Shown here: positions 5,649 through 12,484 of the stretch, one piece after another
Position numbering within the stretch: the stretch's first letter is position 1
Layout of the letters: the number at the start of each line of letters is the position of its first letter
Assembly: GCA_009781175.1 (NCBI GenBank)
Contig: WQYQ01000013.1
Coordinates: 13,581 to 77,580, forward strand
DNA length: 64,000 nt
Source of the DNA: Betaproteobacteria bacterium
GTDB lineage: Bacteria > Pseudomonadota > Gammaproteobacteria > Burkholderiales > Rhodocyclaceae
Direction of reading: 5' to 3'
Program-made: the position numbers and the translations under genes
Notes under the pieces: generated by a model
Databases searched by the model: none
Told to the model about the DNA's origin: nothing
Seen by the model: the letters and a program-made list of their open reading frames with translations, nothing else

Positions 5649-8600
5649 ATGAATCTGCCCGCCTCGCCCGCAATTTTCGCTAGTCCGCACGATATTTTGC
5701 TTGGCCCCGACCGGCCCGACCTAATCCGCAACGAAGTCCTCGCAGATTTGCTCGAAGCGACGGCCGCGCGCGTGCCGGAAAAAACGGCCTTGATTTTCGG
5801 CGAGTATTCGCTGACTTACGCTGAACTCGACGCGGCGGCTGGGCGCGTAGCGTCGCGCCTGATCGAAGCGGGCGTGCGGCCGGGGCAACTCGTCGGACTG
5901 TGGTTGCCGCGCGGCTTGCCGCTGCTCGTCATGCAGGCCGGCATCGCCAAAAGCGGCGCGGGCTGGCTGCCCTTTGATGCGGATACGCCGGTCGAGCGCA
6001 TCGGCATTTGCCTGGAGGACGCGGGCGCTGTCGGTATCGTCAGTTGCGCCGCCTTGGCCGATGCGCTGGCGCCGCTGGGGCGGACGGTGTGGTGTGCCGA
6101 GGCGCTGGACGCGCCGCTCGACGGGCCGCCGTGCCGGCGCGAAGGCGTATCGCCCGCGCATCCGGCCTATGTCATCTACACCTCCGGCTCGACGGGCAAG
6201 CCCAAGGGCATCGAAATCAATCAGGGCAGCATCTGCCACTTTCTGCGCAGCGAGAACGCGGTGCTCGGCGTGTGTGGGGACGACCGCGTGTATCAAGGTT
6301 TTTCGGTCGCCTTCGACATGTCTTTCGAAGAGATCTGGATCAGCTACCTCGTCGGCGCCACGCTCTGGATCGCGCCGAAGGAACTCGCGACCGACCCCGA
6401 AGCCCTGCCGCGCGCGCTTGCCGCCAACCATGTCAGCGTGCTGCATGCGGTGCCGACGCTGCTTGCGCTGTTCGCCGAAGATCCGCCGAACCTGCGTCTG
6501 ATCAACCTCGGCGGCGAGATGTGTCCTGAAGCGCTCGTCGAACGCTGGGCCAAACCCGGCCGGCAAATCTTCAATACCTACGGCCCGACTGAGGCGACCG
6601 TTTCGGCCAGCCTGGCCGAGTTGAAGGCCGGCGAGCCGGTGACGATCGGCACGCCGCTGCCGAATTACGGCCTGCTCGTTATCGACGACCAGCTACGTTT
6701 GCTGCCGCGCGGAGAAACGGGCGAGTTGTGCATTACCGGGCCGGGCGTCGCGGCGGGTTATCTCGGCCGTGCGGATCTGACGGCGGAAAAGTTTCTGCCG
6801 AATCCCTGGGCGCACGTCGGCTGGGACACGCGCATGTATCGCACCGGCGATCTCGCGCGCATCGATACCGATGGCCGGGTGCAATGCCTGGGCCGCGCCG
6901 ACGATCAGGTGAAAGTGCGCGGCTTCCGTGTCGAACTCGGCGAAATCGAAGCCGTTTTGGCGCGCCAGCCCGGTGTGGGTACATGTGCGGTTGTGCTGCG
7001 TGAGGACGAGGGCATTGACCACGAGTTGAGCGCAAGCCCCGCCATTGATGGCGGGGTCAGCGAAACAAGCGTTACTGGCGCCGAAGGCGCCCCCGATTCG
7101 TGGCGAGGAAGCCCCAAGCTTCAGCTTGGGGCGACTCACGAACTCGTCGCCTTCATCGTCCCCGAAGCGGATGCCCTGCTTTCGGGCAGCGAACTGCGTC
7201 GGCACCTGGCAGAAGTTCTGCCGCCTTATATGGTGCCGGGGCGTTTCGAAACGCTTGCGCTGCTTCCGCGTTTGACTTCGGGCAAGATCGATCGGAAGGC
7301 GCTGCGCGCCATGCCGCTTGCAGCGCCGCAAGCGCCCGCGGGTGAATCCGACGTGGCGCAGAATCCGGTCGAGGAAACACTCTTCGCCGCATTGGCCCGG
7401 CTTTTCCCCGGCCAGCCGATCCGGCGCGAGGCGGATTTCTTCTCCGACCTCGGCGGCCATTCGCTGCTTGCCGCGCGGCTCGCGTCCGCCTTGCGCGAAG
7501 ATCCGCGCTTTGCCTCGCTGACGGTGCGCGACATCTATCAAACGCGCCGTATTGGGGCGATCGCGCAAGTATTGGTGCACGCGGCAGCGGCAAAACATGT
7601 CGTTCCCGATGCGGATTTCGCGCCGCCGCCGGCGCTGCGCCGCTGGCTGTGCGGTCTGGCGCAATTGCTCGCGGTGCCGCCGCTCGTCGCGCTCTACATG
7701 ATTCAATGGCTCGCGCCGTTCTTCACTTATCACTTCTATACCGGCGAGCCGGGCGATTCGATTCCGCTCGCGATCGGCATGTCGGCGCTGGTGTTCTGGA
7801 TCGCCACGCAGCTTGGCTTCGTCGTCGCGATTATCGGCAAGCGTCTGATTGCACCGAAGCTCAAACCGGGACGTTATCCGCTTTGGGGTGTGACTTACTA
7901 TCGCTGGTGGCTTGCGGACCGCCTCATTGAAGCCGCGCCGAACTATCTGATCGCGGGTTCTTCGCTGTTCGTCTGGTATCTGCGCGCGCTGGGCGCCAAG
8001 ATCGGCCGCGATGTGCAGATCGGCTCGATCACGCTGCGCGCGCCCGAATTGCTGAGCCTGGGCGACGGCGTGAGCATTGGCACGGCGGTCAACTTCGAGA
8101 ACGCGCGCGTCGAACGCGGCCAGCTTGTGCTCGGGCGCATCGAACTTGCACATAACGCGTGTGTGGGCTCTTACGCGGTTGTCGAAGGCAATACCTCGAT
8201 CGGCGAATTCGGCCACCTCGAAGGGCTATCGGCGTTGACCGACGGCGAACATCTGCCGGCGCATCGCGTCTGGAGCGGCTCTCCCGCGCGCGATGTTGGC
8301 GCCTTCGATCCGACCAGCCTGCCGCCGCGCCCGCAGCCGGGCAAATTGCGGCGTGGCGCGGAAAACCTGTGTTTCACCCTCGGCGCGATGCTGGTTTCGA
8401 TTCTGTTCTTCCTGCCGGTTTTCCCGGCTTTCATGCTGATCGACAGCCTTGACGATCTGGATGGTTTCCAATGGGCGCATAGCACCGCAGATATGGTTAC
8501 GGATCTGATGCGGGTCGGGAAATATTTCGTACTCGCCCTGCCCGCCAGTGCCTTGCTGGTTATCTGCACCGCCTTGCTCGCGGCGCTGATCCGCTGGAGT

Positions 8601-12436: not shown

Positions 12437-12440
12437 TGAC

Positions 12441-12484
12441 ATTCGTGGCGAAGAAGCCCCAAGCTTCAGCTTGAGGCGATTCAC
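12441..12484 (+). mobile_element. Solo IS200/IS605-type right end (44 bp)
   Basis: 41/44 identical to 7096-7139; preceded by TGAC (12437-12440) and ends in TCAC. Confidence 0.75.

Follow-up and report, generated by a model that had tools for sequence, protein, structure and literature searches.

How did the gene of a non-ribosomal peptide synthetase (NRPS) come to carry 40 additional codons that, as DNA, fold into a series of hairpins and yet leave the reading frame open? The question is raised by positions 7016-7139 of the stretch analysed here, hereafter the window, which comprises 64,000 nucleotides of contig WQYQ01000013.1 from a bacterium of the Rhodocyclaceae (GCA_009781175.1; 3.3 Mb in 44 contigs, 59.6% G+C, assembly 94.7% complete). 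Coordinates are window positions unless preceded by a C-label, which denotes a contig of the same genome; G-labels denote genomes of the same family. An initial annotation had proposed a miniature element of the IS200/IS605 family of insertion sequences (IS), removable in trans and possibly switching enzyme activity. From the comparisons described below we regard it as very probable that 7020-7139 is an ends-only, non-autonomous derivative of an IS200/IS605-family element of the IS605 type (tnpA plus tnpB), similar to the palindrome-associated transposable elements (PATEs).

Layout and boundaries of the insert

The element (7020-7139, plus strand) is 120 nt long, that is, 40 codons free of stops in the frame of the synthetase, and encodes HELSASPAIDGGVSETSVTGAEGAPDSWRGSPKLQLGATH. 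It follows a TGAC tetranucleotide (7016-7019) that lies outside the insert, is the host target and putative left cleavage site, and is read ..T GAC (Ile-Asp), codons that are kept in the NRPS orthologues. A stretch of 13 nt (7020-7032) separates TGAC from the left guide tetranucleotide, CAAG (7033-7036), directly 5' of the left subterminal hairpin (7037-7056), whose arms CCCCGCCAT and ATGGCGGGG form a perfect 9-bp stem (7037-7045 with 7048-7056). A middle hairpin, GGCGCC-GAA-GGCGCC (7077-7091), comes next, and a long-range stem (7019-7028 with 7094-7103) closes around the left and middle hairpins (7019-7103). At the right end, the guide GAAG (7108-7111) leads into the right subterminal hairpin (7111-7132; arms GCCCCAAGCT and AGCTTGGGGC, a perfect 10-bp stem, 7111-7120 with 7123-7132), which is followed by a CGAC linker and by TCAC (7136-7139), the putative right cleavage site and the final four bases of the element. 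All of these features are on the plus strand, and both subterminal hairpins lie on that strand in direct orientation. Neither hairpin sequence of the window copy would be expected by chance, 100 shuffles having given no match. Terminal inverted repeats are absent: inversion of the 5' end, TGAC/CACGAG... (here and below a slash marks a junction), does not yield the 3' end, ...GGGGYGAYTCAC. A scan of 6800-7400 against Rfam gave chance-level matches only.

The arrangement of tetranucleotides and hairpins, as well as the length of 40 stop-free codons, is thus as the initial annotation had described it, the latter borne out by the reading of the open frame. The same annotation had likened the right end, read as EEAPSFSLG, to TnpB C-termini and omega-RNA regions; that reading belongs to another frame than the gene, in which the stretch reads RGSPKLQLGATH. 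Because the frame was wrong, and because the portion that matches an IS right end is only the last ~35-45 nt (guide, hairpin, linker and cleavage site), too little for an omega-RNA scaffold, the remark is unsupported.

Three kinds of empty site agree on what was inserted. Orthologues of the synthetase from the same genus align to either side of the insert without a break in their own coordinates (...RxDDGID/QLVAFIVP...), and the 40-residue segment is missing from 45 of 45 aligned Pls/PosA homologues, so that the gap after GID foreseen by the initial annotation is present. A second copy lies in the gene for the CopA P-type ATPase, which reads ...GMQARID[40 aa]GHLFRLGN... here and ...GMQARID/GRLLRLGN... 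in the orthologue of the sister species G006, the DNA being ATTGAC[120]GGA and ATCGAT/GGC, respectively. Finally, a second repeat unit of ~48 nt ends in ...GCGCAGAA-TGAC and normally continues with CGCGAGTCGAGCG...; two of its copies hold the 120-nt element exactly between TGAC and CGCGAG, which gives paralogous filled (...GCAGAA-TGAC-[120]-CGCGAG...) and empty (...GCAGAA-TGAC-CGCGAG...) sites. Taken together, these sites define an insert of 120 nt, placed on the 3' side of a host-derived TGAC, with neither a target duplication nor inverted termini.

The element belongs to a repeat family with at least 66 full copies in the genome. The 66 full-length copies were found by blastn, 50 of them aligned over exactly positions 1-124 of the unit as originally delimited (TGAC plus insert), and a profile search with nhmmer gave 146 matches, 66 of them full-length and ~80 partial. 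Outside the stretch that runs from TGAC to TCAC, the flanks of the copies are unrelated; TGAC precedes 79 of 88 left ends and TCAC is the terminus in 72 of 75 scored right ends. Other copies therefore share the boundaries of the window copy. The mean pairwise identity of the copies is 80%, and the window copy is the closest of all to the family consensus (96.8%).

Folding, guide rule and the autonomous relative

Covariation computed on 26 diverse copies supported four helices, namely the long-range stem and the left, middle and right hairpins. Overall, 92.8% of the cells are paired and 16 of the 34 pairs show compensatory double changes, a number reached by none of 500 shuffles; sliding the partners by one column halved the pairing. 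The three hairpins are 95% (left; compensatory change in four pairs), 96% (middle; three) and 95% (right; six) paired, and the long-range stem 86.5% (three), with many G.T wobbles. Because such wobbles are frequent, only the plus strand in the window folds well; the fold of the element as DNA has an energy of -37 kcal/mol (z = -5.3).

Each hairpin of IS608 is preceded on its 5' side by a tetranucleotide that pairs with a cleavage site, namely GL AAAG with CL TTAC and GR GAAT with CR TCAA; the pairings A+16:T-3 and A+17:T-4 join the first guide base to position -3 and the second to -4, and alteration of GL retargets insertion (PMC3201880, PMC5934647). On this pairing map CAAG would specify TGAC, and GAAG would specify TCAC. 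Natural variation within the family agrees. The major type in the genome combines CAAG with TGAC at the left end (56 copies) and GAAG with TCAC at the right (49 copies), whereas a minor subfamily has CAAT/TGAA and GAAT/TCAA. The latter combination recurs in two other genera, in 13 of 13 copies aligned from G103, several of which are at contig ends and all of which are preceded by TTGAA, and in at least six of seven copies at either end in G165 (left CAAT or TTGA / TGAA; right GAAT/TCAA). An autonomous element described below combines a CAAG/TGAC left end with a GAAT/TCAA right end. The final guide base and the final site base thus change together at both ends, and all three combinations, as read from the DNA, obey the IS608 rule. 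The guide rule invoked by the initial annotation is in this way upheld by covariation between subfamilies, and sequence comparison alone confirms the rule cleanly in an unrelated IS605 lineage.

A covariance model built from the mini-element was run over 151 genomes of the same family. The mini-element family has a patchy distribution, with members in 19 of the 151 genomes and in 17 of 89 genera. Among them, a metagenome-assembled genome of the Rhodocyclales contains a decayed element in which a TnpB C-terminus is followed by ...GGAAT-CTCCGGCCTTCAGGCCGGGGAG-GATG-TCAA/. The relatives of this TnpB, 82-91% identical, are found in Aromatoleum, Burkholderia, Paenalcaligenes, Cupriavidus and many others, and belong to a tnpA-tnpB element of the IS605 type that is widespread in Beta- and Gammaproteobacteria. 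The covariance model matches both ends of this element, with tnpA on the minus and tnpB on the plus strand, in the orientation of tnpB, at ~60 of 80 fetched loci. The left end of the autonomous element reads TGAC/CCGGTGCGCGA-CAAG-CCCCGCCGTTCAGGGCGGGG, its right end GAAT-hairpin-GATG-TCAA/. In the copy of Aromatoleum anaerobium, the left end is TGAC/CCGGTGCGCGG-CAAA-CCCCGGCCTTCAGGCCGGGG, most loci having CAAG and CCCCGCCGTTCAGGGCGGGG; next come a second hairpin, tnpA on the minus strand (145 aa), tnpB on the plus strand and a right end terminating in TCAA/. In a comparison of 14-15 loci, similarity between the flanks is lost precisely at the 5' side of TGAC and the 3' side of TCAA; in 14 loci the sole feature common to the left flanks is the TGAC before the autonomous IS.

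The mini-element and the autonomous IS thus have in common the target, the left guide, a near-identical left hairpin, the position of the second hairpin and the layout of the right end; cognate IS200/IS605 ends, which the initial annotation had expected elsewhere, are present on an element with both tnpA and tnpB. Because its ends match those of an IS605-type transposon, the mini-element falls within the definition of a PATE (PMC3119063). As a separate observation, the tnpB frame of several autonomous copies (L107 2515-3819 and other tnpB loci) meets no stop in the right-end hairpin and runs on into the flank, and its right end (GISGLQAGEDV) corresponds to the NRPS frame at the right end of the mini-element (GSPKLQLGATH).

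PATEs and other ends-only derivatives of IS605 elements have been described in Haloquadratum and Natronomonas (PMC3119063), and one in Halanaerobium (PMC7290912). Like them, the present family lacks inverted terminal repeats and target duplications, has IS605-like palindromes near its termini, a 5' targeting sequence of 4-5 bp and a conserved terminal oligonucleotide, includes core-deleted and ends-only variants, and is found in genomes without an intact transposase. It differs in being bacterial (from a Rhodocyclaceae-like host), 120 nt long, with hairpins of its own and TGAC as target, and in that several copies stand in frame in protein genes, of which the accounts in PMC3119063 and PMC7290912 make no mention. 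The likeness to IS608 and ISDra2 extends to subterminal hairpins on the top strand, 5' guides that pair with the site, insertion 3' of a fixed tetranucleotide and a scarless joint; moreover, the GAAT...TCAA right end of the autonomous relative and of the copies whose guides end in T (T-type) consists of the IS608 tetranucleotides. The distance between site and hairpin is 17 nt on the 5' side of the left hairpin and 4 nt on the 3' side of the right one, versus 19 and 10 in IS608; unlike in IS608 and ISDra2, the stems are perfect and show no obvious extrahelical base, the element is devoid of genes and no replication-strand bias is seen.

By analogy, a Y1 (HUH) transposase, TnpA, would bind both subterminal hairpins on the top strand, CAAG and GAAG would base-pair with the cleavage sites TGAC and TCAC, and the element would leave its donor without a scar, as a single-stranded circle, to be pasted 3' of another TGAC. 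The window copy would have inserted at a TGAC with the reading xxT-GAC, within the part of the NRPS gene that codes for the C-terminal adenylation subdomain, and we infer that TnpA acting in trans mobilised it in the past. The products of excision would be an empty junction GGCATTGAC/GAACTCGTC (TGAC/GAACTC) and a circle junction in which TCAC is joined to CACGAG. The restored junction of the initial annotation, ...EDEGID/ELVAF..., is not supported in this detail, as excision would give GID-ELV against GID-QLV in the orthologues, a minor difference. Because the insert is 120 nt long and open in frame, the synthetase gene still reads through and gains a loop of 40 residues.

Transposase supply and competing explanations

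Several observations weigh against derivation from an IS605-type element. Neither tnpB (searched for with PF07282 and tblastn) nor a cognate tnpA was detected in the 94.7%-complete assembly, and G103 and G165, with many copies each, are also without a cognate tnpA. Insertion of IS608 and ISDra2 favours the template of the lagging strand; here, no replication-strand bias was found, the top strand lying on the G-rich strand in 33 of 64 copies, as judged by GC skew. In ~90% of the G-type copies, the fourth guide base can also form a G.T, G-C or A-T pair with the nucleotide that follows the hairpin, so that its conservation may in part reflect closure of the stem, although this pairing is absent in T-type copies. 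Thirteen copies combine GAAA with TCAC, outside the guide rule, which fits neutral decay after insertion. Lastly, the codon at the NRPS junction is GAA (Glu) here and CAG (Gln) in the orthologues, and this junction by itself would permit a shift of the boundary by 1-2 nt; a shifted boundary is ruled out by the paralogous and CopA empty sites.

The genome does contain Y1 genes, one for an IS200-type TnpA that is 29% identical and one that is RAYT-like (REP-associated tyrosine transposase, where REP stands for repetitive extragenic palindrome). The former, on C10, was rejected as the mobiliser, its hairpins being unrelated and no element lying nearby. The RAYT-like gene (C6:30597-31287) adjoins a dGTPase gene. 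The search for further copies and for a tnpA or tnpB with the same hairpins, which had been suggested at the outset, was thus successful for the copies and negative for the transposase genes. Among the genomes of the family, a cognate tnpA was seen in G145, G053 and G012 alone, while G149 and G085 have fragments of one. In sum, the copies in this genome look like relics of past invasions and the window element looks stranded; since no cognate tnpA was found, it is presumably immobile at present. The structure of the window copy is intact, and any cognate TnpA that arrived would have a substrate in it.

It is conceivable, since the family has spread in this genome, G103 and G165 where no cognate TnpA is present, that another resident activity, such as the conserved RAYT-like protein or a host enzyme acting on single-stranded DNA, mobilises the ends and that the in-frame copies can be excised without a scar. 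We consider this unlikely; if true, the in-frame copies would be reversible peptide insertions in housekeeping and biosynthetic enzymes.

A related proposal would be that the element is not an IS605 derivative at all but a repeat of the REP/REPIN type, moved by a resident RAYT-like Y1 protein. A RAYT-like gene is present here and in most relatives that bear the element, the copy number is high, the majority of copies are intergenic, short hairpin units of 55-60 nt and palindromic doublets with the same left module occur, and there is no orientation bias. The REP/REPIN repeats associated with RAYTs (PMC2817692, PMC3116915, PMC8266576) are likewise high-copy, Y1-related hairpin repeats with a tetranucleotide 5' of the hairpin. 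However, that tetranucleotide is not GTAG or CGTC, the bases 5' of the hairpins being CAAG and GAAG (or CAAT and GAAT); the element is made of two different hairpins in direct orientation and not of an inverted doublet; and it does not flank any RAYT gene, no significant match to the model (E < 1) being found within 1.5 kb of the RAYT-like loci of eight genomes. In G165, moreover, at least 17 copies occur without a single Y1 match, and the target, guide and hairpin at both ends of the element correspond to those of an autonomous tnpA/tnpB IS. The proposal is thus improbable, and derivation from the IS605-type element is preferred.

Could that derivative act as a reversible switch, its scarless excision and re-insertion by TnpA toggling the activity of the synthetase? 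The target, guides, hairpins and cleavage site of the window copy are intact, the hairpins perfect, the sequence is the nearest to the consensus, and excision of IS608 is scarless (PMC3201880). Against this stand the absence of a cognate tnpA from the assembly and the age of most copies, as shown by their mean pairwise identity. In addition, no near-identical filled or empty allele was found among 5.8 billion proteins, the protein being the only member of its cluster and its next homologue 67% identical over the region. The insert is modelled as a disordered surface loop (see below), which gives no reason to expect a loss of activity. Removal in trans and the resulting switch, as first suggested, therefore find no cognate tnpA or tnpB to act and, with no orientation bias either, stay speculation, and we hold a switch to be very improbable. 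A Correia- or Nezha-like miniature element moved by a DDE transposase, to which ~120 nt, a high copy number and a strong secondary structure might point, can be dismissed, as the filled and empty sites already refute terminal inverted repeats and target duplication, and both hairpins are direct on one strand with a fixed 5' tetranucleotide.

In-frame copies, the synthetase loop and variant copies

The NRPS is not the only gene to have accommodated the element, in-frame copies of which were found in at least five others, coding for a glutathione S-transferase, CopA, DnaX, RibD and an Na_H_antiport_3 protein. Two of the six frames of the element are open, one forward (T/GAC CAC ...) and one reverse. 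The forward frame, (I/L)DH.LSASPA..GGVSET.V.GAEGA.D.WRGSP.LQ.G..H, is used in the NRPS, the glutathione S-transferase, the CopA P-type ATPase, a DUF2339 protein and the Na_H_antiport_3 protein; the reverse frame, VSHPN.KVGASSPQIG..., in DnaX (tau), RibD and probably a peptidase-S51 protein. In these genes, Pfam domains flank or span the insert. Open frames spanning copies at C23:24453, C34:291, C21:57028 and C8:53288 look spurious or lie on the wrong strand and were not counted as genic insertions. The best explanation of the in-frame pattern is that genic insertions which disrupted their host gene were all eliminated by selection. The idea that the element itself was selected to be compatible with coding was considered and rejected, two open frames out of six being what an estimate from stop-codon frequencies gives by chance at ~60% G+C.

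In their behaviour, these copies recall the Rickettsia palindromic elements (RPEs; Ogata et al. 2000, reviewed in PMC3184786). As described there, RPEs are like the present family in being palindromic repeats of ~100-150 nt that stand in frame in several unrelated genes, including essential ones, adding a peptide and leaving the open reading frame intact. The likeness is one of behaviour only, a relation in sequence not being expected, and the present element is set apart from the RPEs by a transposon parent that can be identified and by a defined rule of insertion, with only two of six frames open. On the sequence evidence, the family is a new bacterial member of the PATE, or IS605 mini-element, kind, with in-frame survivors of the RPE sort. 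The initial observation, and the core of what was read into it, therefore stand. Survival of this sort in essential genes can apparently arise from single-strand Y1 transposition combined with a codon-compatible target (xxT-GAC). For annotation, the 40 residues of the NRPS and the similar segments of DnaX, RibD, CopA, the glutathione S-transferase and the antiporter are to be taken as transposon-derived and not as functional motifs.

The interrupted gene (P0002; 5649-9794, plus strand) codes, as called, for a single-module NRPS of 1381 aa within an open frame of 1508 codons. Its assignment to the Pls/PosA family follows from the open reading frame, from matches of its adenylation domain in the PDB, among them epsilon-poly-L-lysine synthase, and from homologues named 'Pls/PosA family non-ribosomal peptide synthetase'. 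An adenylation domain and a carrier domain are followed by a C-terminal part with membrane and hexapeptide-repeat regions. The insert lies in the C-terminal adenylation subdomain, between motifs A8 (GRADDQVKVRGFRVELGEIE) and A9 (LPPYMVP). In an AlphaFold2 model of this subdomain and the carrier domain, built with 45 homologues, the insert (residues 153-192 of the model) is predicted as coil, with a predicted local distance difference test (pLDDT) score below 50, and the adjacent β-strands (residues 142-151 and 196-204) fall in blocks with a mean pLDDT above 90. The 40 residues are thus probably a disordered loop at the tip of a β-hairpin and, because of this location, are probably tolerated by the enzyme; if so, the tip would be a naturally tolerated insertion site in the adenylation subdomain, of interest to enzymology.

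Shortened, lengthened and rearranged versions of the element also occur. The window contains a second, ends-only copy at 12437-12484 (plus strand), directly after a TAA stop codon, which consists of TGAC and element positions 81-124 (44 nt) and may be compared with the PATEs of Haloquadratum that lack their core and measure 52 bp. Three longer copies (C24:30540-30728, C20:23806-23994 and C4:97856-98044) have in common an extra module of ~60 nt (GCCGAAGGCCGCAGGACAGCCGAAGGCTGGTCCCGCGAAGCGGGATGCGGCG...), placed between element positions 54 and 50, and represent a composite variant. Left-end modules are also found (C21:60532-60593 and C7:46915-47031; loci L041, L043 and L046 of G006), both on their own, as units of ~45-60 nt, and as perfect palindromic doublets, TGAC..CAAG-hairpin..CTTG..GTCA, which are REPIN-like; the sister species G006 has short left-end units only. 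In some copies (C1:179746, C32:8750 and C1:192896) the left arm is GTCTCGCTGAC...GTCAGCGAGAC, a variant that lengthens the left hairpin by ~10 bp at the cost of the CAAG guide and represents an alternative fold of the left end. G103, a genome of 2.6 Mb, has at least 23 near-identical T-type copies, and its sole Y1 match is a weak RAYT-like gene. Finally, a second repeat family, TTGTCCTCCGATAGTGGATTCTGCGACTGCGCTTCGCTCCGCGCAGAA, with ~36 copies in the genome (e.g., C8:2041-2092 and C23:37515-37565), is always followed by TGAC and then usually by a hairpin-less variant of the left part of the element (CGCGAGTCGAGCGCAAGCGAGACAAAC); it is a recurrent landing site of the 120-nt element and may itself be an end of another element of the IS200/IS605 type.

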